Below, in pieces: positions 4,495 to 64,000 of a DNA stretch of 64,000 nucleotides. The notes beneath the pieces were generated by a model. That model had not been told where the DNA came from. It saw only the letters and a program-made list of their open reading frames with translations, and searched no databases. The translations under genes and the position numbers were made by a program. Numbering within the stretch: position 1 is the first letter of the stretch; each line of letters opens with the position of its first letter. Source of the stretch: a virus (taxonomy: Duplodnaviria > Caudoviricetes); the IMG/VR virus record IMGVR_UViG_3300021254_001514, positions 1 to 64,000 of that record; one strand, given 5' to 3'.

Positions 4495-5421
4495 ATGTAT
4501 AGAAAAGCAGATAATAGAGTAAGAATTGAGGGTATCCTTGCAGAAAGCGATCTTAAATATACTTCTTATACAAAGAATGGCGTTCCTGTCGACGCTATCG
4601 GTGGAAGTATTAAAGTCCTTGTAGAACAGGTTATTAATGACAAGCCCGTAAGTGTAGAAATTCCTGTTTATATGTTTTCTTCTAAACTTACAAAGGCCGG
4701 TGGAATTAATCCTTCTTATGAATCTATTGAGAAGGTAATGAATGAATTTGTTTCTATTGCTGCCGCGGGTAGTTCTGCGCAGGCAGATAGAATTCGTATC
4801 ACCAACGGTGACATTAGAATGAATGAGTTTATTGGGCAGAATGGTCAGCTTGTATCTCAGCCTAGAATTCATGCTTCTTTTGTTAGTCGTGCGGTAGGTG
4901 ATTTTAAACCTGAAGCCACTTTTAACATCGAATTTATGGTGTCTAGCATCAATCAGGTGCTGGATAAGGATGGTGTAGAGCTTGATCCTCCCAAACTTTG
5001 CGTCCAGACGATTGTTCCGCAGTACACCGCCGAATCTGCGGCAGCCATGAATGTCGATGTAATACCTCTATATGCAACGGCTCCCGGCGTGATTGATGCC
5101 ATTTCCAATTATTGGGAGGCGGGCGCTTGTTATCGTGCAAATGGGCGTCTTAACTTTTCTTCTCGCGTCGAGGAAGTCGTTGCCGAAGGAGGTTTCGGTG
5201 AGCCGCAGCGTTCAACCAGAACCATTAATGTGAGTGAGTTTATTATTACTGGTGGATCGGAAGCTCCTCTTGAAGATGAACTTGCTTTTAATCTTGAAGA
5301 TATTAAGGCTGGTATGGCAGCGCGCAAGGCTCGTATTGAGGAAAGAAAGACAAGTAAAGAAGGTGCTAAGCAGACTCCTGCTAAGGAAACTTCTAAGGGA
5401 AAACTTGATCTTGGCTTCTAA
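4495..5421 (+). CDS. Putative single-stranded DNA-binding protein
   Basis: OB-fold-like start (RVRIEGIL), charged tail ending LDLGF, and position directly before a Sak4-like ATPase. Inferred. Confidence 0.55.
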   Translation: MYRKADNRVRIEGILAESDLKYTSYTKNGVPVDAIGGSIKVLVEQVINDKPVSVEIPVYMFSSKLTKAGGINPSYESIEKVMNEFVSIAAAGSSAQADRIRITNGDIRMNEFIGQNGQLVSQPRIHASFVSRAVGDFKPEATFNIEFMVSSINQVLDKDGVELDPPKLCVQTIVPQYTAESAAAMNVDVIPLYATAPGVIDAISNYWEAGACYRANGRLNFSSRVEEVVAEGGFGEPQRSTRTINVSEFIITGGSEAPLEDELAFNLEDIKAGMAARKARIEERKTSKEGAKQTPAKETSKGKLDLGF

Positions 5422-54334: not shown

Positions 54335-54510
54335 TTTTTTATTTCAAAAGTCTTTTTAAATTTTTTATTTCAAAAGTCTTTGTTACCAGGTGGGAGGGCA
54401 GTTAGACGCGTCTAACTCCAGTTTCCTAAAACCAACCCCGGGTAGGCGTACCTAACCTGAGTTAGCCGCCCCTAATCGCAATTAGATATGTTTAACCTCA
54501 GTTAGGTACA
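54335..54510. repeat. 21-bp direct repeat plus a GTTAG/CTAAC palindrome cluster
   Basis: TTTTTTATTTCAAAAGTCTTT at 54335 and 54361; perfect palindrome AGTTAGACGCGTCTAACT at 54400-17; TACCTAAC...GTTAGGTA inverted pair. Confidence 0.75.
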
Positions 54511-54693
54511 GAACGTTATTTTATAAACATAAAAGACAGTCTATAAATTTTATAACATAGTAGCGATAAAAAGCAAAAATATGCAAAAAAAATTTTTTTA
54601 AAAAAATGAAAAAAGGGGGTTGACAAGCTTTTTTTAGTGTGTTATAGTGTATACAGAAACAAGGAAAACCGAACCGCAAAAGGGGGGTACACT

Positions 54694-55170
54694 ATGAAAC
54701 GTAAAACCTATTCTATCAATATAGACTACGTCTATGACTCCGCGCGCAAGGGCGCAAAGTATAGCTTTAACAACGGCGCAAGCTGGGTCAATGGTGGTGA
54801 GGCTATTGAGATTTTTGTTAAGTCAGCGCTGGGTCTCTCAGCTGAGAAAGACGCTAACACGCCCTTCGATGTAGACAGTGATATCCCCGAATACCACGCA
54901 AGCGTGAAAAGCTCCGCTTTTACCTTAACAAGTGAAAAGCTGGGTGAGACTTTCGAGGAAGTGAAAGCTGAATACTTCCGCCGGACGGCTAGCACCTGCA
55001 CAGTATATGGATACGCTACAGAAGATACGCTGGTAACCTATTGGATGACAATGGAAGAGTTTGCAGAGTACCTGGACAAGTGGGGAACCTGGGAAGCCAG
55101 CCGCAAGGTAATCAGAGGAAAGAAGCTGAGTGGAAAGATGATAGAATGGTTCGAATCTAAGGTAGCGTAA
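54694..55170 (+). CDS. Hypothetical protein (first gene of the small-gene region)
   Basis: AGGGGGG RBS, own promoter, terminator hairpin at 55157-55180. Confidence 0.8.
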   Translation: MKRKTYSINIDYVYDSARKGAKYSFNNGASWVNGGEAIEIFVKSALGLSAEKDANTPFDVDSDIPEYHASVKSSAFTLTSEKLGETFEEVKAEYFRRTASTCTVYGYATEDTLVTYWMTMEEFAEYLDKWGTWEASRKVIRGKKLSGKMIEWFESKVA

Positions 55171-55452
55171 GCTACCTTAGAGGGAAATCAGTAAGTATAG
55201 AGAGAAGAACACTATGAGAACAAGAGAAGAAGCTGAGGTAAGAATCAACCATTGGAAAGCTGGTTGTTCATGCTGGATATGAAAGACCATTGGAAAGCTA
55301 AAGATTGGATACGCTATTATAAGATGAAGAAGGAAGCTGAAAAGCTTAAAGAAGGATTAAAGGTAAAAGCTTAGGCTCTTACCAAACAAAAACCTTGACA
55401 AGATAAATAAAGTATGATATAATTAAGCTATCAAAGATGAGGAGATAAAGCC

Positions 55453-55626
55453 ATGACAAGAGAAGAGATGTTAGATGAGGTTATTAGAGTAAGAGGGTTT
55501 GAGGATAGGTGGACAATCTGGTTTGCGGAACTAATGGAGAGTGAGACAATCTCTGATAGTGCTTTACAGAGTGCAATGGTTGCGGCGGTTGTAATGCCTT
55601 TCGATGATGAAGATGAGGATGAGTAG
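55453..55626 (+). CDS. 57-aa acidic hypothetical protein (MTREEMLDEVIRVRGFEDRW...)
   Basis: Not in the ORF track. Has a promoter at 55395, a GAGGAG RBS and a hairpin over the stop. Confidence 0.75.
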   Translation: MTREEMLDEVIRVRGFEDRWTIWFAELMESETISDSALQSAMVAAVVMPFDDEDEDE

Positions 55627-55769
55627 TCCTCATCTCTTTTACGCGTGGAGTATCAGCGCCCGGGCGATTTAGATTGTACACAATCTAAAATTTTTTATAA
55701 AAACTACTTGACAAAGTCTTATAAATAATGTATAATATAATTACAAAAAGAAAGAGAGGGAAATAAAAA

Positions 55770-55982
55770 ATGGGAGTTTATGAAGAGTTAGTAGAATATT
55801 TTGAGAATGGTTATGAAATATTCTTTGGTTCTTATTATGGTGATGATGATGAACCGATAGAGAGTTTACAGGAATTAGAATGGGCGTATAAGGATTCTAC
55901 TTGCGATTCTCTTTATATAGCATCCGTCGATGTTGATGATGAAAACCAATCCGTTTATGTATATGTAGGAGATGATGAGTAA
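55770..55982 (+). CDS. Very acidic small protein
   Basis: Own promoter and GAGAGGG RBS. Confidence 0.8.
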   Translation: MGVYEELVEYFENGYEIFFGSYYGDDDEPIESLQELEWAYKDSTCDSLYIASVDVDDENQSVYVYVGDDE

Positions 55983-56199
55983 TGGTGTATCTGTATATTT
56001 TTTGGATTATTTTATTCATTTTAAATTTAGTTGTTCTCTATATGTTTCGGCATTCCGAAAAATTTTTTAAAGACAGATTTAACAAAAGTTAAGTCTGTCT
56101 AACCTTGCCCGGGCGCGCCGTCATTTTGCATAAATTTTTTCTATTTTTTTGTATAATTTTTTACTTGACTTTATAGAAAAAATATGATAATATATAACC

Positions 56200-56346
56200 A
56201 TAGAAAACAAAAAACCCTTTCCTTTCCTAAAACTTTATAAGAGGGATTAAGGGGTAAGTGGCTTGAGGTTTGACGAGTAAAAAATTTTGCGGCGACCAGT
56301 CTCCCGTGGGATTTTTAAAAGCTTACTAACCATATCCCCTCCCTCT
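56200..56346 (+). ncRNA. Structured leader or sRNA candidate
   Basis: No ORF. Long-range pairs AGAGGG/CCCTCT, AGGGG/CCCCT and GTAAGT/GCTTAC behind promoter 56165. Confidence 0.45.
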
Positions 56347-56382
56347 AAAAAATTTTTCAAAAAAATTTAAGAGGAAAAAAAG

Positions 56383-56577
56383 ATGTCATTAAATAAAGCA
56401 ATTCAATATAATAAAGAACATAGAAAACCTTTCACAGGTGCAAAAAGTATTTGTAAAAGTTGCCGCAATCATGGCGGTTGTCCGTGGTGTGAAGGCAATA
56501 GGAAATATAAATACAAAAAAGTTGAAGAAAAAACAGAAAAAGACTTGACAAATTTTGAAAAATATAATATAATGTAA
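56383..56577 (+). CDS. Cys-rich small phage protein
   Basis: KEHRKP...CRNHGGCPWC. Confidence 0.8.
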   Translation: MSLNKAIQYNKEHRKPFTGAKSICKSCRNHGGCPWCEGNRKYKYKKVEEKTEKDLTNFEKYNIM

Positions 56578-56605
56578 TTACAAAAAAAGAAAGGAGATTC
56601 CTAAA

Positions 56606-56725
56606 ATGTGTATAATGGATGGAGTTGTAATTGCAGGTTGTGCTTTTGGATTATATATAATTGCCCTTATTGATGAAGGAATTAAGCAATTCAAAAAGAG
56701 GTTAAATGAAAAGAGAGGAAAATAA
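56606..56725 (+). CDS. 39-aa membrane peptide
   Basis: AAGGAG RBS; MCIMDGVVIAGCAFGLYIIALIDEG... Confidence 0.65.
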   Translation: MCIMDGVVIAGCAFGLYIIALIDEGIKQFKKRLNEKRGK

Positions 56726-56726
56726 A

Positions 56727-56921
56727 ATGGAAAATGTTCATATAAGATATGAGGGCGATTTATTTCTCACAGGACTTGCGCTTTTATTTATTGCACTAAA
56801 ATTGTGTGGCGTTATTCATTGGTCGTGGTTGTGGGTTCTTTCACCACTTTGGATTCCTTTTGGATTGATAGTTATATTTATCTTAGTTATTTTAGTTTGT
56901 AAAATTATAAAAAAGGGTTGA
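56727..56921 (+). CDS. Small membrane protein, paralogue of 60836..61051
   Basis: LKLCGVIHWSWLWVLSPLW. Confidence 0.8.
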   Translation: MENVHIRYEGDLFLTGLALLFIALKLCGVIHWSWLWVLSPLWIPFGLIVIFILVILVCKIIKKG

Positions 56922-56974
56922 CAAAACAAAAGTAGTGTGATATAATAAAGAAAAAAAGAAAGAGAGGATTTCAT

Positions 56975-57037
56975 ATGGCATTTATTTTCGTTTTCATCTA
57001 TTTTTCTGCATTATTCGTTGTAGCAAAAGAGGATTGA
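56975..57037 (+). CDS. 20-aa hydrophobic micro-ORF
   Basis: Own promoter (56918) and GAGAGGA RBS; MAFIFVFIYFSALFVVAKED. Confidence 0.45.
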   Translation: MAFIFVFIYFSALFVVAKED

Positions 57038-57048
57038 AGGAAAAAAAC

Positions 57049-57387
57049 AAAATCAAGAAAATTTAAGAAAAATGATTGACAACTTGAATTATATATGATA
57101 TAATTAAATCAGAAAAACGGAAAGACTTGCATCCAGTGGTTCGATGAAGATGGAAAATTTACTGGAAAAATTGAATGGGTATAGAGGGAAGAATATGAAA
57201 GATATAATTAAAAGAGAAACAGTAAAAGATTATACTTCTTGGGATTTAAACGCAAAATGTGTCAGAGTAAAAAATAGACAGGAACTTGAATCTAAATTCA
57301 AGAGAAAAGCAAGAAGAAAAAATCGAGAAAATTTAAGAAAAATGGTTGACAACTTGAATTATATATGATATAATTAAATCAGAAAAA
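57049..57387 (+). repeat. 69-bp promoter-containing direct repeat (57049-57117 / 57319-57387)
   Basis: Two mismatches; period exactly 270 bp. Confidence 0.92.
57195..57368 (+). CDS. Basic hypothetical protein
   Basis: GAGGG RBS before ATG 57195; the C-terminus is encoded by the second repeat copy. Confidence 0.65.
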   Translation: MKDIIKRETVKDYTSWDLNAKCVRVKNRQELESKFKRKARRKNRENLRKMVDNLNYI

Positions 57388-57406
57388 AAGAAAGAGAGGA
57401 ATTTAT

Positions 57407-57616
57407 ATGGAATGGACAAAATGGTTTTCTGTTGATGAGAGGTTGCCAGTATCAGGTGACACCGTGCTTGCGTATGATGGTTCAGATATGTTTGTAGCGT
57501 GGTGTTTTATTGACACTGATGAAAACTGCGTGCGATGGCATAGTTTTGATTCCAATTTCGATAAAGATACACCGATAATAAAATGGATGCCATTACCAGA
57601 CCCACATGAAGACTGA
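57407..57616 (+). CDS. DUF551-like protein
   Basis: WFSVDERLP...VLAY...IIKWMPLPDP. Confidence 0.8.
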   Translation: MEWTKWFSVDERLPVSGDTVLAYDGSDMFVAWCFIDTDENCVRWHSFDSNFDKDTPIIKWMPLPDPHED

Positions 57617-57822
57617 AAAATAAATAGTATAGATGGGCGCAAATGTATGTTTGCGCCTTTTTGTGGTCTTGAGTGCAAACGTCCTTTAATTATAGTTAGA
57701 CGTGTCTAACTTTTACCCGGGCGAGGTTAAGCGAGTCTAACTAAAATTAAATAAAAAAATACTTGACAAAACAAACTAAATGTGATAATATATAATCAGA
57801 AAAGGAAAGAGAGGTAATAAAA

Positions 57823-58131
57823 ATGATTAATATTAGAACACTTAGAAAAATTTCTGATAATGGCGGTCTCACTCTTAAGAATGGCAAACCGATTTCCTAT
57901 AAAAGCGGATGGCAAGTAGCAACCGAAGGAATCGAAACTACAGATATTCTTGAAGCGATGAAAGCAATTAAAGGATATAAGGGAAATTGCGGAATTTGGT
58001 TCTCTGATGGAATCTGGTACATAGATAAAAGTAAAAGAGTAGATACAAAGCGCGAAGCCATGGAGATTGGGCGCAAGTGCAATCAGATTTCTATTCTTAG
58101 ATGGCGCGATATGGGTTTGGCGTACTGCTAA
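57823..58131 (+). CDS. Hypothetical protein
   Basis: Own promoter, GAGAGG RBS, and a stop inside hairpin 58107-58141. Confidence 0.8.
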   Translation: MINIRTLRKISDNGGLTLKNGKPISYKSGWQVATEGIETTDILEAMKAIKGYKGNCGIWFSDGIWYIDKSKRVDTKREAMEIGRKCNQISILRWRDMGLAYC

Positions 58132-58255
58132 ACCCATATCGAATATTCGTTTTTTTTGCCCGGGCGCCACGTAGTTAGACGAGACTAACTAAAATTAAAT
58201 AAAAATTTTTTTAAAAGGGGTTGACAAACCATAAACTCCGTGCTATAATGTATAC

Positions 58256-58465
58256 ATAAGGTGAGAGATGGCAGAACGAGAGAAGGTCACAAGTCGACCG
58301 TATAAGACCATTTGACGAAAGTCCCCACCACCGCAAGCCGAAGTCCAACTTTGCGGTATATAAATGTGAGGCAACAGCGCACGCTCTTGGAAGTGCGAGG
58401 GTGGTTGGATTGAGAGAAAATGAGTTCGAGAGGTTTATCCCTCTCGGACTCGGCGCCCGGGCGCC
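58256..58465 (+). ncRNA. Structured ncRNA candidate with a pseudoknot
   Basis: Consensus promoter at 58221; no long + strand ORF (a 15-codon ORF at 58268); several stems, a GAAA tetraloop and an 8-bp loop-tail pairing. Confidence 0.6.
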
Positions 58466-58578
58466 GTTTTGTTATTTTGCACAAAAATAAAATCAATTTT
58501 TGTATATTTTTTTTCTTGACTTTTTATATATTAAGTGATATAATATATACATAAGATAAAGAAAAGGAGAAAAACAAA

Positions 58579-58683
58579 ATGGCAATCATTAAACTTGACG
58601 GTTATGTAATCGGTACGGAAAGAATTGAAGAAATCAACATAAGAGAACTTGAAGAAAATGGTTTCGTTGTTGTTATAAAGTAA
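58579..58683 (+). CDS. 34-aa hypothetical protein (MAIIKLDGYVIGTE...)
   Basis: Own promoter and AAGGAG RBS. Confidence 0.7.
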   Translation: MAIIKLDGYVIGTERIEEINIRELEENGFVVVIK

Positions 58684-58731
58684 AACGTATGTATTAAATA
58701 TAATAATAATAACTGAAAGGTAGGAGAAAAT

Positions 58732-58926
58732 ATGAAAGTTGAACTTATTTATTCCACTAAAGTAACTGTTTACTTTGATGACCTTTTTGAAAGAACAATG
58801 ACAGGAACTCTTGGAGAAATTCTTGATGAAGTAAAACTTTTAATGAGAGGATATAATTTTTCAAAGAGTGAACTTGTAGATGGTTTTACTGGTGAAATTA
58901 TAGCCATTGTTAAAACAGAAGTTTAG
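58732..58926 (+). CDS. Hypothetical protein
   Basis: AGGAG RBS; stop inside hairpin 58916-58949. Confidence 0.8.
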   Translation: MKVELIYSTKVTVYFDDLFERTMTGTLGEILDEVKLLMRGYNFSKSELVDGFTGEIIAIVKTEV

Positions 58927-59069
58927 TGCTTTAATGCACTAAATTTCTGCCCGGGCGCGCCGTCATTTTGCACAAAAAAAGACAAGAATTTTGTACACTT
59001 TTTTTTCTTGACAAATAAATAAAAATATGATAATATAATTATAGAAAATAAAGGAAAGGCGGTAAGGAT

Positions 59070-59504
59070 ATGGTAAAGGAAATTTGGTTTGATATGGACG
59101 GAACAATCGCAAATCTGTATGGTGTTGATGGTTGGCTTGATATGCTTATCGCTCAGGATTCTACACCCTATGAAGTAGCCGCTCCTATGGTGCGCATGGC
59201 AACGCTGGCAAGGTTGTTGAATCGTCTACAGAGACAGGGTTATAAAATTGGAGTTATCTCTTGGCTGAGCAAAACTTCCACCCCCGAATATGATAAAGCT
59301 GTCACAAAAGCAAAAAGAGCTTGGCTTGCAAAGCATTTAAAAAGCGTAAGGTTCGATAGAATAGATATAGTAAAATACGGTACACCAAAACAGAAAGGTA
59401 GAAACGGAATCCTGTTTGATGACGAAAAGCCGAATCGTGAAAACTGGAACGGCACTGCCTACAATGTAGACAACATTATCGAGGTATTGAAGGGGCTTGC
59501 ATAG
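59070..59504 (+). CDS. HAD-superfamily phosphatase (5'-nucleotidase-like)
   Basis: WFDMDGT, ISW, K, and ILFDD motifs. Confidence 0.85.
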   Translation: MVKEIWFDMDGTIANLYGVDGWLDMLIAQDSTPYEVAAPMVRMATLARLLNRLQRQGYKIGVISWLSKTSTPEYDKAVTKAKRAWLAKHLKSVRFDRIDIVKYGTPKQKGRNGILFDDEKPNRENWNGTAYNVDNIIEVLKGLA

Positions 59505-59547
59505 CCCTTTCTTTCAATGCGCCCGGGCGAACTTGTTCACCCGAGTT

Positions 59548-59576
59548 ATTATAACACATTGGGAGAGATTTGTCAA
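59548..59576 (-). promoter_or_regulatory. Antisense (leftward) sigma-A promoter 1
   Basis: Minus strand TTGACA-17-TATAAT. Confidence 0.8.
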
Positions 59577-59716
59577 TAGGCAATTCATACAAATATTTTC
59601 TATAAAATTTGTGTATTCTGACATATTGCATTTTCATAAAACTTGTGATATACTTTAATTACAGTAAAGGAAGAAGATAAAGTTAAATATTATTATGAAA
59701 CATGGAGGTATTGATT

Positions 59717-59929
59717 ATGTATATTATTACTGTATTAACTTCTGGGAAGTACCATAATGTAACACTTGGTCATCGGGTTGCTTTTACTCGATTTGGTTTA
59801 AAATATATGACAAATAACTTCTATGAATGTGATTGTAGTTTTACAGTAGAAAAAACCTTTAAATTACATAATTTAGTCTTTGGAACGAAATTAATTTATT
59901 TCAGAAAGGCAAAACGAGAGTACAAGTAA
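59717..59929 (+). CDS. Hypothetical protein
   Basis: GGAGG RBS before ATG 59717. Confidence 0.75.
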   Translation: MYIITVLTSGKYHNVTLGHRVAFTRFGLKYMTNNFYECDCSFTVEKTFKLHNLVFGTKLIYFRKAKREYK

Positions 59930-59965
59930 TCGTCCTCTCGGGCGCGCAAGCGTCCGCGCCCGGGC

Positions 59966-59995
59966 ATTTTATCACAGGAAAGGAGTGTTTGTCAA
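59966..59995 (-). promoter_or_regulatory. Antisense promoter 2
   Basis: Minus strand TTGACA-18-TAAAAT with extended TG. Confidence 0.65.
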
Positions 59996-60116
59996 GAGAA
60001 AATTTTAAGAAAAAATAAAAATTTTTTTGAAGTTTTTTCTTGACAAATTTTAGATTTTTTGATATAATTTAATTACAGAAAGGGAAAAAATCCCATAAAT
60101 AGAAAGGAGAATATAA

Positions 60117-60353
60117 ATGTATATTGATGAAACAGCAAAAATGGAAGCTTATTTTAATGATCGAGAAAAGGAATCTTTTATTGATACTATTGGAATCCTT
60201 GAAAAATTAATTGACAAAATGATAGACTATGAACGTCGTTATATTGAATATGATAATTATGATGATGATGGTTATAATGCTTATAGTATTGTAACAATTA
60301 AAGATGTAAAAGAAACACTTGAAAATATTAAAGAGATGAATTTTATTTATTAA
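60117..60353 (+). CDS. Acidic hypothetical protein
   Basis: Own promoter and AAGGAG RBS. Confidence 0.8.
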   Translation: MYIDETAKMEAYFNDREKESFIDTIGILEKLIDKMIDYERRYIEYDNYDDDGYNAYSIVTIKDVKETLENIKEMNFIY

Positions 60354-60369
60354 AGAAAGGAAAACAAAA

Positions 60370-60600
60370 ATGAAATGTTATATGGTATATGTAGACAAAG
60401 TTAATTATAATGAATACGATGCTTGTATTGTGTTGGCTGATTCCGAAGAAGAAGTTCGTAGTATGTTTAAAAAAGAAGAATCTTATGAATATATTCCTGG
60501 AATAGAAGAGGATGTTTACTTTTATAACTATCAAGGAAAAATTCATATAGAAGAAGTAACAGAAAAAGGTTTGGTTCTTGCAAGTTTTAATGCAGGATAA
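60370..60600 (+). CDS. Hypothetical protein, paralogue of 9656..9862
   Basis: Shared motif described for 9656..9862; AAGGA RBS. Confidence 0.8.
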   Translation: MKCYMVYVDKVNYNEYDACIVLADSEEEVRSMFKKEESYEYIPGIEEDVYFYNYQGKIHIEEVTEKGLVLASFNAG

Positions 60601-60673
60601 ATGAAAGGAGAAGAATAAAATTTTAATACCGAGAAGGCGCACCCTTCTCGGGTGTGCTTTGCACACCCGAGTA

Positions 60674-60703
60674 ATTATACCGCCCGGGGTGCAACTTTGT
60701 CAA
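60674..60703 (-). promoter_or_regulatory. Antisense promoter 3
   Basis: Minus strand TTGACA-18-TATAAT. Confidence 0.7.
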
Positions 60704-60835
60704 TAGGAAAACTTCACAAATTTATAAAAAATATTTTGTTTATTTTGTCTATTGCCTTTTTTTTATATTGTGATATACTATAATTACCGAAAGGGAAGAA
60801 AACAAAAACACACAAAAAGAAAAGGAGAGAGTAAA

Positions 60836-61051
60836 ATGAAAAATAATAATACAAAAAGAGTAGGTCTTGGTTTCTTTGATGCTTTAACAATCGTATTCAT
60901 TGTATTAAAACTTTGTGGCGTAATTACTTGGTCATGGGTATGGGTACTGGCGCCACTGTGGGGACAGATTGCAATAATTTTACTAATTGTAATTATTGGT
61001 GTTTCTATCGTATTGATAAGGGACAGAAGATGCAATGGAATGTTTTTTTAA
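60836..61051 (+). CDS. Small membrane protein, paralogue of 56727..56921
   Basis: LKLCGVITWSWVWVLAPLW; AAGGAG RBS. Confidence 0.8.
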   Translation: MKNNNTKRVGLGFFDALTIVFIVLKLCGVITWSWVWVLAPLWGQIAIILLIVIIGVSIVLIRDRRCNGMFF

Positions 61052-61200
61052 GTAAGACATGGAGAGTGAAAAAATGTTTGCTTTCTTAATTGTCGTAACA
61101 GACGAAAAACAAAAATAAAAAACCTTTTCCTTCCTTAAAAAAGAGTAGAGATTTTTCTCTACTCTTTTCCTTTTCTCGAGCGTGCGCGCACGCCCGAGCA

Positions 61201-61229
61201 ATTATACTACTTCGCGCCGGATATGTCAA
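61201..61229 (-). promoter_or_regulatory. Antisense promoter 4
   Basis: Minus strand TTGACA-17-TATAAT. Confidence 0.8.
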
Positions 61230-61335
61230 TAGTAAATTTTAACAAAAATTTTTTATTTCTTTGTGCAAAATTTTACTTGACTTTTTTTCTCTTTTCTGAT
61301 ATAGTATATATAGAAAGAGAAAGGAGATTTCTAAA

Positions 61336-61572
61336 ATGAGAGAATTTTTCTGTATCGAAGAACCTTATACTTTCGAGGTCATGGATTTATTTTCCGTCAT
61401 CACTGTATTAAACGTGGTTTTAGTTCTTGTAGGTCTTTGGTGGGCGCCAATTATCGGACTTGTAAATTGTGCTTTAAACATTCTGTACAGTGTAAAGCAT
61501 AAAAGTCATATAAATGGTTATGTGATGCAGATTGCACTCATTGTATTAAATAGTTATTTTTTAACTTTATAA
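61336..61572 (+). CDS. Small membrane protein
   Basis: AAGGAG RBS; two to three hydrophobic segments. Confidence 0.8.
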   Translation: MREFFCIEEPYTFEVMDLFSVITVLNVVLVLVGLWWAPIIGLVNCALNILYSVKHKSHINGYVMQIALIVLNSYFLTL

Positions 61573-61775
61573 AAAAGTTCTTGACTTTTTAACTTTTATA
61601 GTATATAATATAATTACAAAGTTAAGGAAAGGCTTTTAAAACTTCTGATAAAACCCCATAGGAGTGTGTAAGGAAGTCAAGGTGCGCACAGGGTTGAAAA
61701 AATCTTTTTAAAAGGGTCTTGACAAACCTTTCCTACTTTGATATAATAAAGAAAAAAGAAAGCGAGGATTTAAAA

Positions 61776-61988
61776 ATGACAGAGTGGTACAATTTCCTTT
61801 ATGAAATCGTTGGAGAAGAAAGCGACCTTTGCGGAGAAGAATTTCTCGTTGCGGTTAATGTACCTTGGGAAAATGCGCAAGATTATGCAAATGGTATTGC
61901 AAGAACATCATTTCCCAATGAAGAAATCAGAGGTTATGGTTATGTAACCGAAGAAGAAGCGGAAATGATGGGACTTGATACATACTAA
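61776..61988 (+). CDS. Acidic hypothetical protein
   Basis: GAGGA RBS before ATG 61776; own promoter. Confidence 0.8.
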   Translation: MTEWYNFLYEIVGEESDLCGEEFLVAVNVPWENAQDYANGIARTSFPNEEIRGYGYVTEEEAEMMGLDTY

Positions 61989-62061
61989 AAAGAAAAGGAC
62001 TTAACAAAAGTTAAGTCCCTTTAACTTTACCCGGGCGCGGCGGATTAAGGCATAATCTTAT

Positions 62062-62090
62062 ATTATATCATATTATTTCTTTCTTGTCAA
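62062..62090 (-). promoter_or_regulatory. Antisense promoter 5
   Basis: Minus strand TTGACA-17-TATAAT with extended TG. Confidence 0.8.
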
Positions 62091-62209
62091 TAGGCAAATT
62101 ACACAAATTTTTCTTTTTATTTTTGTCACTTTGTATATTGCAATTTTTATAAAATAGTAGTAATATAATATATGAAAGGTGAGGGAAGTCTGGCGACTAT
62201 CCCAAAACC

Positions 62210-62435
62210 CTTCAAAAAAAAGTTAAAAAAACTCTTGACAAACTCCTTAAAATCTGATATAATAAAGATACAAAAGAGGTCAAGAAAAACTTCTTAAAAA
62301 AGTTAAAAAAAGACTTGACAACTCTTTAAGAATCTGATATAATAAAGGTACAAAAAGAGAAAAGCCTTTAAAAAACTTCTTAAAAAAAGTTAAAAAAAGA
62401 CTTGACAAGCAACCGAAAAGGTGCTATAATAAAAG
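62210..62435 (+). repeat. Triplicated promoter unit (periods 80 and 87 bp)
   Basis: AAAAAAGTTAAAAAAA...CTTGACA-17-TATAATAAA three times. Confidence 0.9.
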
Positions 62436-62517
62436 TGTAAAAAGGAAGAGATAGGAACTCTTCCATAACAAATAAAAATTGCGCCCACTGCATAAGTGTG
62501 GGAGAAAGAGGTCTATT

Positions 62518-62871
62518 ATGACAAAGAGAATGTTTCTGGAAGCTGTAGTAAATGGTTCTGAGCTTACTGATGAGATGAGAGCTTTCGCTCGTGAGACTAT
62601 TGATAAGCTTGACGCTACAAATCGGTCTCGCTCCGCTAAGGTCGCTGAAAAGCGTGCTAAGGAAGATGCTCCGCTGATTGCAAAAATCATGGAGTACCTC
62701 GCCGCTAAGGGTACTGGTGCTACCGCATCTGAAATCGCTAAGGAAGTAGAGGTCTCTACCGCAAAGGCTTCCGCTCTGTGCGCAAAGCTTGAGCGTGAGG
62801 GTGAACTCGTCTCCTCCAAGGCTAAGGAGCGTGCGCCTAAGGTCTACGCTATTCCGTCTGATGCGGAATAA
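62518..62871 (+). CDS. Winged-HTH DNA-binding protein, probably highly expressed
   Basis: ATASEIAKEVEVSTAKASALCAKLEREGELV; GCT/AAG/CGT codon bias; GAGG RBS. Confidence 0.75.
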   Translation: MTKRMFLEAVVNGSELTDEMRAFARETIDKLDATNRSRSAKVAEKRAKEDAPLIAKIMEYLAAKGTGATASEIAKEVEVSTAKASALCAKLEREGELVSSKAKERAPKVYAIPSDAE

Positions 62872-62875
62872 TCCC

Positions 62876-62906
62876 AAAGGGGGAAAGGGTCTTTCGACCC
62901 TTTCCC
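62876..62906 (+). terminator. Hairpin after the wHTH gene
   Basis: GGGAAAGGGTC-tttc-GACCCTTTCCC. Confidence 0.65.
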
Positions 62907-63139
62907 AATAACTAAATAAAACTTGACAAAATTTAAAATTTATTATATAATAAATATAGAAAATGAAAGGGCGTAGACTATCTGCGCCCGGATAACTTCA
63001 TTTCATATTTGCCCGGGCGCGGTTAGACAAGTCTAACTAAAATTAAAGAAACTTTTTTAAAAAAGTTGTTGACTTTTTTCTTATTCTGTGGTAATATAAT
63101 ACTTGTAAGGAACAGAATAAACGAAAGAGAGGACTTAAA

Positions 63140-63781
63140 ATGAAAGTTATCGTTCTTGACACGGAGACTACTAACTCTATTGATGACCCCATCTGTTATG
63201 ATATTGGGTGGGCAGTAGTTGATCCTGAAACTGGAGAAATTTTTAAGACAAGAAGCTTTGCGGTAGCTGAGATTTTTCTTGATAAAGAGCTGATGAGCTA
63301 TGCGTATTTTGCTGATAAAATCCCCTCTTATTGGGATGAGATTAAACGTGGAGAACGGAAACTTGCTCGCCTCTATAATATTAGAAAGGCTTTACAAGCT
63401 GATTGCAAGAAATATTTCATTTCTGAAATTTATGCACACAACGCTCGATTTGATTATCGTTCGTGCAATCTCACGCAAAGATTTTTGACTTCTTCTAAAT
63501 ATCGTTATTTTTTCCCTTACGGAATAACGATTTGCGATACGCTAAAAATGGCAAGGGAAGCCTTCAAGAATTGCCCAGAATACTGCGATTTTTGTGAGAG
63601 AAATAACTATAAAACTGAGAAAGGACAAAACCGTTATACCGCTGAAATTCTTTATAGGTTTTTTACAGGTGATAATGATTTTATGGAAGAGCATAAAGGT
63701 CTTGATGATGTTAGAATTGAAAAAGAAATTTTAAAAGAATGCTTGCGAAGAGGTATTACAAAAAGTGCGCTTTGGTCTTGA
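63140..63781 (+). CDS. DEDDh 3'-5' exonuclease
   Basis: VLDTETT, YAHNARFD, CDTL, EEHKGLDD. Confidence 0.9.
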   Translation: MKVIVLDTETTNSIDDPICYDIGWAVVDPETGEIFKTRSFAVAEIFLDKELMSYAYFADKIPSYWDEIKRGERKLARLYNIRKALQADCKKYFISEIYAHNARFDYRSCNLTQRFLTSSKYRYFFPYGITICDTLKMAREAFKNCPEYCDFCERNNYKTEKGQNRYTAEILYRFFTGDNDFMEEHKGLDDVRIEKEILKECLRRGITKSALWS

Positions 63782-64000
63782 CCAAGGCGCCCGGGCGCGG
63801 TTAGAGACATCTAACTAAAATTAAAGAAAAATTTGAAATTTATGCTTGACTTTTCTGAAAATATCGTGTATAATCTTATTAAAGAGTTAAGGAAAGCGCG
63901 CAACTCCCAAAAAAAATTGAAAAATTTTTTAAAAAGTCCTTGACAAACCAAATAAAGTATGCTATAATAAGTATATAAAAAAGAAAGAGAGGTAACTACT

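Follow-up and report, generated by a model that had tools for sequence, protein, structure and literature searches.

Why should an array of small rightward phage genes, most of them provided with a promoter of their own, also carry consensus promoters that point backward, at no open reading frame (ORF)? The question is raised by the right-hand end of a 64,000-nucleotide (nt) stretch of viral DNA, hereafter the window, which corresponds to the first 64 kb of the 82,852-bp IMG/VR virus record IMGVR_UViG_3300021254_001514 (genome label G000; about 33% G+C); five such promoters, here named P1 to P5, occur at 59548-62090, and a sixth, P6, lies just outside the window. Tentatively, and with slightly less than even confidence, we regard P1-P6 as host sigma-A promoters belonging to terminator-coupled antisense units, which would insulate or damp the early gene cassettes in cis.

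The phage is uncultured, from gut or rumen, and siphovirus-like; two large ORFs, of 2503 and 1852 amino acids (aa), match tape-measure and tail families, and the gene content includes a topoisomerase II, a DnaB-like helicase, a RecJ-like exonuclease, an anaerobic ribonucleotide reductase and a large DNA polymerase, whose nearest cultured homologue is YorL of Bacillus phage SPbeta (37% identity). The promoter type, together with the relatives of the phage, points to a Firmicutes host. The early-type array extends from about 54.6 to 64.7 kb and comprises some 25 small rightward genes; perfect matches to TTGACA-N16-18-TATAAT number 18 in the window, all of them at 55395-64000, against the 0.07 expected from shuffled sequences.

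Backward promoters without a gene

The five leftward promoters, which had been proposed in a first-pass annotation made from the sequence alone, are all present, within 2.6 kb. P1 (59548-59576, minus strand; -35 at 59576-59571, -10 at 59553-59548), P3 (60674-60703, minus), P4 (61201-61229, minus) and P5 (62062-62090, minus) match the consensus at 12 of 12 positions, and P2 (59995-59966, minus; TTGACA-N18-TAAAAT) at 11 of 12; a TG extended -10 is found in three of the five (P1, P2 and P5), and the 18-nt spacer of P3 includes CCCCGGGCGG. P6 (64762-64734 of G000, minus) has the same build, complete with a palindrome and a bidirectional terminator with a U7 tract. The spacers of all six promoters are mutually unrelated in sequence. 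P1-P5 lie 40-150 nt past the stop codons of plus-strand genes, each unit following a gene-strand terminator and preceding the next promoter of that strand, and neither a ribosome site nor a credible ORF was found downstream of any of the five, in agreement with the earlier claim that they point at no gene; the only long minus-strand frame, of 107 aa (60666-60343, behind P3), was rejected as an F-rich antisense composition artefact.

The same annotation had described each backward promoter as back-to-back with a forward one. This holds for four of them, with strong forward partners at 60040-68 and 61277-305 and partners with an extended -10 and a weak -35 at 59626-54 and 60752-79, but not for P5, for which no convincing forward partner promoter or gene was found. 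In the P1 cassette, the divergent spacer (59577-59654, plus strand) consists of an inverted repeat, ACAAAT...ATTTGT, followed by the forward promoter TTGCAT-17-TATACT (59626-59654), and blocks homologous to it follow P3 and P5. The upstream motif of P1, P3 and P5 (TTTGT..TTTGCCTATTGACA) is shared with gene-strand promoters of distant phages, and the upstream context of P2, TTTTCTC-TTGACAAA, resembles antisense promoters of distant phages.

Operator-like inverted repeats (ACAAAT...ATTTGT; TTGCACAAAA...TTTTGT(A/G)CA) stand more generally between a boundary motif or backward promoter and a forward promoter, at 59577-59625, 60704-60751, 62091-62140, 56115-56160, 58465-58510 and 58960-59005; similar ones are seen in the phage contigs L009 and L034.

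Palindromes, second hairpins and predicted RNAs

As the annotation had stated, four of the promoters fire straight into a palindrome and the fifth does so into none. In P1-P4 a GC palindrome of 10-11 bp begins 1-2 nt past the -10 element; P5 has CCCGGGCGCG at 62030-62039. The palindrome of P1 (59522-59545) reads CCCGGGCGAAC-TT-GTTCACCCGAG and includes the boundary motif CCCGGGCG, discussed below; two of its positions read G.U in the leftward RNA and C.A in the forward one, the folds being -16.0 leftward and -9.5 forward. That of P2 (59937-59964), CTCGGGCGCG-N8-CGCGCCCGGG, also forms in folds and was scored by a terminator scan as a forward terminator-like site (tail CATTTTATCA). In P3 the palindrome CTCGGGTGTGC-TTT-GCACACCCGAG (60647-60671) overlaps a second hairpin, CCGAGAAGG/CCTTCTCGG (60629-60651), the pair occupying 60629-60671 with fold z values of -4.7 and -4.4. 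The P4 palindrome (61175-61198), CTCGAGCGTG-CGCG-CACGCCCGAG, is perfect in the close relative L078 and carries in G000 a single change, which reads G.U in the leftward transcript and A.C in the forward one.

Each of P1-P5 yields two hairpins when folded from its likely start site. A second hairpin with a leftward U-tract had been claimed for three copies; it is clear at P4 and P5 and acceptable at P2, weak at P3 and lacking at P1. At P4 a bidirectional intrinsic terminator (61133-61168, hairpin 61139-61168; terminator scan, fold z -4.4 and -5.5) is common to the 60837-61051 gene in the forward direction and to the predicted P4 RNA in the leftward one, its forward U-tract being about 18-24 nt from the expected P4 start; at P5 a terminator with terminator-like sites on both strands (61985-62022, hairpin 61993-62022; fold z -3.3) serves the 61777-61988 gene and the P5 RNA. 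The second hairpin of P2 (59905-59940, minus strand) is formed by CGAGAG...CTCTCG and a leftward U-tract, and overlaps both a palindrome arm, by 4 nt, and the final codons of the 59702-59929 gene. For P1 the folds reveal no second hairpin with a leftward U-tract, and its transcript would run into the NT5C-like gene at 59070-59504.

Non-coding leftward RNAs starting in the GC hairpin are thus a plausible prediction, as had been suggested, with products of 55-85 nt at P2, P4, P5 and the sixth copy; taken singly, P2 is expected to give about 50-55 nt, P4 about 62 nt (61194 to about 61133), P5 about 70 nt and P6 about 83 nt. The predicted RNAs of P3, P4 and P5 would stop before or at the stop codon of the upstream gene, and only those of P1 and P2 would reach codons. 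No Rfam family gave a gathering-level match in the window; the match with the best E-value, STnc400 at 61132-61196 on the minus strand, is sub-threshold (28 bits against a threshold of 80, E 0.04) and probably reflects only the hairpin-plus-terminator shape of the predicted P4 RNA.

A general boundary motif and a variable stem

A conserved stem base with compensatory variation had been taken as the signature of these hairpins; the inner positions do covary, but the base turns out to be of wider occurrence. CCCGGG is found at 14 sites in the 82.9-kb genome, all within 54437-64723 (54437-63795 in the window, plus position 64723 of G000), nearly always as CCCGGGCG(CG) and in the spacer that separates a gene's terminator from the following promoter, in spacers with a backward promoter and in those lacking one alike. 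CCCGGGCG also marks early boundaries in the relatives L005, L008, L009, L020 and L025, whose neighboring 452-aa protein is 40-66% identical, and in distant phages GGCCGGCC is found in its place. Because CCCGGG accompanies early boundaries with or without a backward promoter, and does so in relatives as well, the fixed stem base of the P1-P4 hairpins is the general boundary motif of this lineage; it may be a protein-binding or recombination site. The part specific to the hairpins is the inner stem (AAC/GTT, TGC/GCA, TG/CA, CG/CG), whose sequence is free across copies and phages, pairing being kept.

On which strand, or on which nucleic acid, the stem might act is suggested by the types of pair. 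The stems of the modules are almost purely Watson-Crick (13 G.U and 7 A.C in 395 pairs), a composition that is not decisive for strand. A test of the Watson-Crick fraction is circular, the hairpins having been chosen for pairing, and served only to show the variety of pair types. Of the wobble positions of G000, two in P1 and one in P4 favor the leftward RNA, and one, in P2, favors the forward RNA; fold energies are better on the leftward strand in 12 of 16 cases, the difference being mostly small. Given such near-pure pairing and so small a strand bias, the stems fit a hairpin that would fold in both transcripts or act as DNA, and do not fit a one-strand RNA gene.

Selection on the promoter hexamers

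The P1-P4 region can be compared with L078, a metagenome contig about 97% identical over 1.6 kb, which is the single close relative obtained from a metagenome scan with the 78-aa early protein. The hexamers show no difference in 48 positions, as against 9 changes in 69 spacer positions (13%), to which a one-base lengthening (17 to 18) and a one-base shortening (18 to 17) must be added; the palindromes differ at 4 of 105 positions and the remaining background at 41 of 1388. The probability that 48 hexamer bases would stay unchanged at the spacer rate is about 0.001. Copy by copy, P1 has identical hexamers around a spacer with 6 substitutions and an indel, P2 is 100% identical, P3 has a 17-nt spacer with 2 substitutions and unchanged hexamers, and P4 has one spacer substitution and unchanged hexamers; the divergent spacer of P1 (59577-59654) is fully conserved but for one base. 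These comparisons support the view that the backward promoters are selected units.

Gene content changes around the same units. L078 is devoid of the 76-aa gene, and the corresponding 274-nt gap (region 60363-60641 of the window) stops 5 nt before the P3 palindrome, the 4 aligned columns in between all being different; conversely, it has an extra gene of about 55 aa, carried by a 165-nt insert behind the forward promoter 60040-68 (window 60086-60116).

Recurrence of the module in other phages

Blastn of the region against GenBank phages returned no match, the exact G000-type module pattern had no match in IMG/VR, and TATAAT-N0-14-CCCGGG was absent from five relatives. The edge copy P6 is present in all three of the nearest IMG/VR relatives, next to a protein 48-66% identical; in each it lies on the outer border of the early array and points into a palindrome with CCCGGG.

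The NT5C-like protein has homologues at 88-97% identity, and more distant copies of the arrangement were reached through an NT5C homologue, at loci that belong to phages of 140-190 kb. At these loci backward consensus promoters have a conserved leader, GGAAAATTC, and are followed by GC hairpins unrelated in sequence, each of which directly abuts the U-tract of the upstream gene's terminator. A pattern based on this leader retrieved 20 loci in 19 viral contigs, with 15 distinct hairpins, and further units with other leaders occur in the same loci, up to seven in 7 kb; the module thus recurs several times per locus in uncultured Firmicutes phages of 130-196 kb. The loci picked by pattern (L057-L076) contain at least one module each by construction, so that independent support comes from the loci ascertained through NT5C and from the extra units. 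The pattern also occurs in genome contigs, solely in those of metagenome-assembled genomes from a scatter of taxa; these are probably phage DNA that was mis-binned, or chance matches, and give no host.

A folding of -12 kcal/mol or lower within 50 nt is seen downstream of 37 of 56 ORF-less antisense consensus promoters, compared to 24 of 122 sense ORF-less ones and 12% of random windows. Of the 68 promoter-plus-hairpin modules, 40 have a gene-strand terminator at 40-85 nt downstream of the antisense -10, and only 18 have a same-direction terminator within 130 nt; short discrete RNAs are therefore not the rule. Clustering of 58 upstream genes gave 43 clusters, mostly with a function-less annotation and with PHROGs matches of unknown function, a diversity which argues for a generic boundary role; two families of upstream genes (clusters of 4-5) keep the module across phages with the stem sequence wholly replaced. 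In the distant phages the stem starts 7-8 nt past the -10, and the whole hairpin would consequently cap the RNA.

A face-to-face variant is seen in phAss-1 (OQ749652.1; L077), where two pairs of consensus promoters surround GC hairpins at 2815-2905 and 5018-5109, and in L058 (1692-1787 and 4234-4329, reverse-complement coordinates). The promoters of these pairs are perfect or near-perfect and about 90 bp apart, a distance at which the polymerase footprints would overlap. The deposited phAss-1 record has no feature annotated at these sites, and the paper describing the phage, whose predicted host belongs to the Clostridia, makes no mention of promoters, terminators or hairpins (PMC10607447).

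A proposed terminator-coupled antisense unit

From the promoters, the hairpins, their position relative to the terminators, and the pattern of conservation and selection, we infer polymerase binding, start sites, collision and an effect on expression, in the following manner. The boundary element is made up, in order, of the upstream gene, its forward terminator, the GC stem-loop, the backward promoter, an A/T-rich spacer with an operator-like inverted repeat, the forward promoter and the next gene. The backward promoter lies near the point at which forward transcripts would be released. A polymerase leaving it would transcribe the GC stem and at once reach the terminator of the upstream gene; where this is bidirectional (P4, P5, P6 and probably P2) a non-coding RNA of 55-85 nt would be released, and where it is not (P1 and, weakly, P3) the RNA would continue antisense into the upstream gene. 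Bound or outgoing polymerases would collide head-on with the forward polymerases that leak through the terminator, the stem-loops fixing the point of collision, and read-through would be blocked into the next cassette or, at the edge of the array, into the oppositely oriented gene block. As a secondary effect, the leftward RNA could reduce the level of the upstream mRNA by pairing with the 3' end of the latter; pairing of this kind, known from the OOP RNA of phage lambda, may add to the collision and may even dominate at P1, P2 and perhaps P4, where the upstream gene encodes a hydrophobic 71-aa protein.

There are precedents for this scheme. Bidirectional terminators between convergent genes of E. 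coli need head-on collisions against read-through, the nascent stem-loop positioning the collisions (Wang, Watters, Ju, Liu; bioRxiv 10.1101/2022.10.23.513370); likewise, the forward gene and the backward promoter here flank GC and terminator hairpins, over which transcription is predicted to converge. Here, however, the converging partner is an ORF-less consensus promoter that seemingly only supplies an opposing polymerase, and the element belongs to a phage of a Firmicutes-type host and is present in several copies. The second precedent is a synthetic part, a terminator combined with a constitutive antisense promoter, in which repression scales with how strong the antisense promoter is and is mostly due to transcriptional interference (Brophy and Voigt 2016, PMC4731013). 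There as here, a complete expression cassette bears the parts in this order at its 3' end; the synthetic part is engineered and worked with unidirectional terminators, whereas the present one is natural and three or four of its six terminators are bidirectional.

Several considerations weigh against this proposal. With bidirectional terminators the synthetic part left the upstream gene unaffected (PMC4731013), and consensus promoters with a GC-rich initial region may show poor escape. In G000 the palindrome begins 1-2 nt past the -10, and the likely start site therefore falls inside its 5' arm, so that the leftward RNA would retain part of the stem only. Among about 25 early boundaries, only 5-6 possess the backward-promoter module, which would imply that insulation is not required everywhere or that CCCGGGCG alone is used elsewhere. 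Finally, 10 kb of the early array in each of the three nearest IMG/VR relatives showed none of the embedded copies P1-P5.

A bolder form of the proposal, to which we would give a fair but clearly less than even chance, is that large Firmicutes phages possess a dedicated, portable insulator, in which an ORF-less promoter does nothing but fire polymerase head-on into the preceding terminator, with a GC stem-loop of free sequence as collision marker; the capped short RNAs might in addition act in trans, soaking up a host RNase or an RNA-sensing defence. If this were true, such dedicated insulator promoters would be the first natural "surrogate convergent genes". Should the module work as proposed above, it would be a compact natural insulator for gene cassettes, which would explain how dozens of individually promoted, possibly toxic early genes stay independent despite free shuffling, and would offer a ready-made part for Gram-positive synthetic biology. 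More broadly, uncultured gut and rumen phages share a regulatory grammar missed by gene-centered annotation. The statement of the first-pass annotation that no description of this arrangement was known to it was too strong, in view of the close precedents offered by lambda OOP, type I antitoxin RNAs, collision terminators and the synthetic part; our literature searches found no description of the backward-promoter/hairpin/terminator module, which in its logic is a version of antisense and convergent-transcription designs already known.

Alternative explanations

The best surviving alternative, which we consider unlikely, is that each unit is a gene-specific cis-antisense gene of the lambda OOP or type I antitoxin kind: expression would be lowered by RNase III cleavage or a structural change once the RNA has paired with the 3' end of its upstream mRNA, collision being secondary. 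The OOP RNA of lambda (pO-oop-tO), the sar RNA of P22 and the type I antitoxin RNAs of SPbeta and B. subtilis prophages are single-copy RNAs of conserved sequence that overlap the coding region of their target. P1-P5 resemble them in having a promoter of their own opposite and just downstream of a phage gene, from which a short non-coding RNA would arise. An intrinsic terminator to end this RNA is clear at P4, P5 and P6 and plausible at P2, but weak at P3 and absent at P1. The predicted RNAs all have full complementarity to the upstream 3' untranslated region (UTR) and terminator. P1, with no leftward terminator, would cover the NT5C-like gene, P2 overlaps the final codons of the gene upstream, and P4 alone fits a type I toxin-antitoxin layout, the 71-aa product encoded upstream of it (60837-61051) being strongly hydrophobic like a type I toxin (maximum hydropathy 2.98); the two clusters of 4-5 upstream genes that keep their module are syntenic across phages, and a 5' stem-loop would stabilize the RNA in a Firmicutes host, where RNA decay by RNase J1/Y depends on the 5' end. 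Against this, the RNAs of P3, P4 and P5 would fall short of the coding region, so that overlap with the 3' coding region of a target would be confined to P1 and P2, and the upstream genes are mostly soluble and unrelated. The backward promoters, moreover, share the constitutive consensus type of the early promoters, and thus no timing is built in. The difference from the OOP-type RNAs lies in the 5-6 copies, the free stem sequence, the overlap mostly with 3' UTR and terminator, and the unrelated genes upstream.

It is less probable, and on the whole doubtful, that the element acts mainly as DNA, the palindromes and CCCGGGCG being protein-binding, cruciform, recombination, R-loop or primer sites at cassette borders, and the promoters serving to open or mark the DNA or being simply carried along. 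The occurrence of CCCGGGCG at nearly all early boundaries here and in relatives, that of GGCCGGCC in distant phages, the near-perfect palindromes on both strands and their extension upstream of the likely start site would all accord with this view. Phage SPbeta offers a precedent, SPBRE/MrpR, in which a master repressor binds a repeated intergenic motif (PMC10516654). A further point is the gain and loss of genes between G000 and L078, which stops at module edges; in the promoter-early stem-loop (PeSL) cassettes of T4-like myoviruses, too, indels between close relatives end at the motifs (PMC2839356, PMC4122927). The role in cassette recombination suggested by the annotation thus finds indirect support, but promoters are not required for it. 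The likeness to PeSL cassettes extends to motifs that combine a terminator with a promoter and stand, in plastic regions, between small early ORFs, here with indels of 274 and 165 nt ending near module edges; the differences concern the phage group (siphovirus-like with a YorL-like polymerase, not a T4-like myovirus), the host promoter type, the GC boundary motif specific to the present lineage, and the orientation of the promoters, which here oppose the genes; PeSL cassettes, the parts of which would all be co-oriented with the genes, are not known to have a backward promoter. A role as DNA leaves unexplained both the perfect -35/-10 hexamers, kept at exact spacing as the spacers change, and the covariation of the inner stem positions, and 5-7 origins or primer sites per 7-10 kb would be implausible.

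The N4-type hairpin promoter (5-7 bp stem, 3-nt loop), also invoked in the annotation, was rejected: the stems here are of 10-11 bp and stand downstream of ordinary -35/-10 elements, and the giant 2503- and 1852-aa ORFs are tape-measure and tail proteins, not a virion RNA polymerase.

Improbable, too, is the multi-copy family of stable, trans-acting small hairpin RNAs that the annotation had proposed, which could serve as decoys for RNA-sensing defences, as sponges or as antitoxins. A strong promoter, a 5' hairpin and a 3' terminator do form units of 55-85 nt at P2, P4, P5 and P6, and the module is widespread; nevertheless, the hairpins have no common sequence beyond the boundary motif, which makes a sequence-specific decoy or guide family unlikely, and the stems differ completely between copies and between phages. 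The scarcity of same-direction terminators among the 68 modules and the sub-threshold Rfam match argue in the same direction, as does the location of the units, invariably coupled to a terminator; a gene for a trans-acting RNA would have no need of this.

That the units are non-functional leftovers, inverted early-promoter modules remaining after cassette shuffling, is very improbable: the region is clearly shuffled, and the upstream motif of P1, P3 and P5 is indeed one of gene-strand promoters elsewhere, but the hexamers are invariant amid fast-changing spacers, the promoter keeps a fixed position with respect to the hairpin, the edge copy persists in relatives at 48-66% protein identity, and the module recurs in many lineages.

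The face-to-face pairs of phAss-1 and of L058-type phages call to mind pR and pL of coliphage 186, which face each other at tens of bp and interfere mutually; these pairs are comparable in that they flank a GC hairpin, whereas in G000 what faces the hairpin is a terminator instead of another promoter, and a lysis-lysogeny switch plays no part.

Other features of the early-gene array

The P4 unit is flanked by two strongly hydrophobic small proteins, of 71 aa (60837-61051) and 78 aa (61336-61572), which could be membrane-active early proteins. An identical 29-nt promoter sequence occurs twice, at 57076-57104 and 57346-57374, 270 nt apart, and at 62172-62440 tandem perfect forward promoters about 80 nt apart (62235, 62315 and 62402) lie on a repeated, ORF-less unit. 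Two ORF-poor forward transcripts, 61609-61700 and 62166-62230, have a stretch in common (...AAGGAAGTC... / GAGGGAAGTC...), and similar leaders are found 3' of promoters in L013, L025 and L027, which may represent a small conserved forward RNA or leader.

Just past the window, at 64763-65130 of G000 (1541-1908 of L004), an ORF-free, repeat-rich segment lies between leftward promoters at 64762 and 65165. Its repeats comprise three or four copies of AAGCTGCAAAG and two each of ACTCTATAA..CTTATAAAATT and GC(G/A)GCTGGGAGCGG; the segment is the junction of the early array with the leftward gene block, and could be an origin or a regulatory region.

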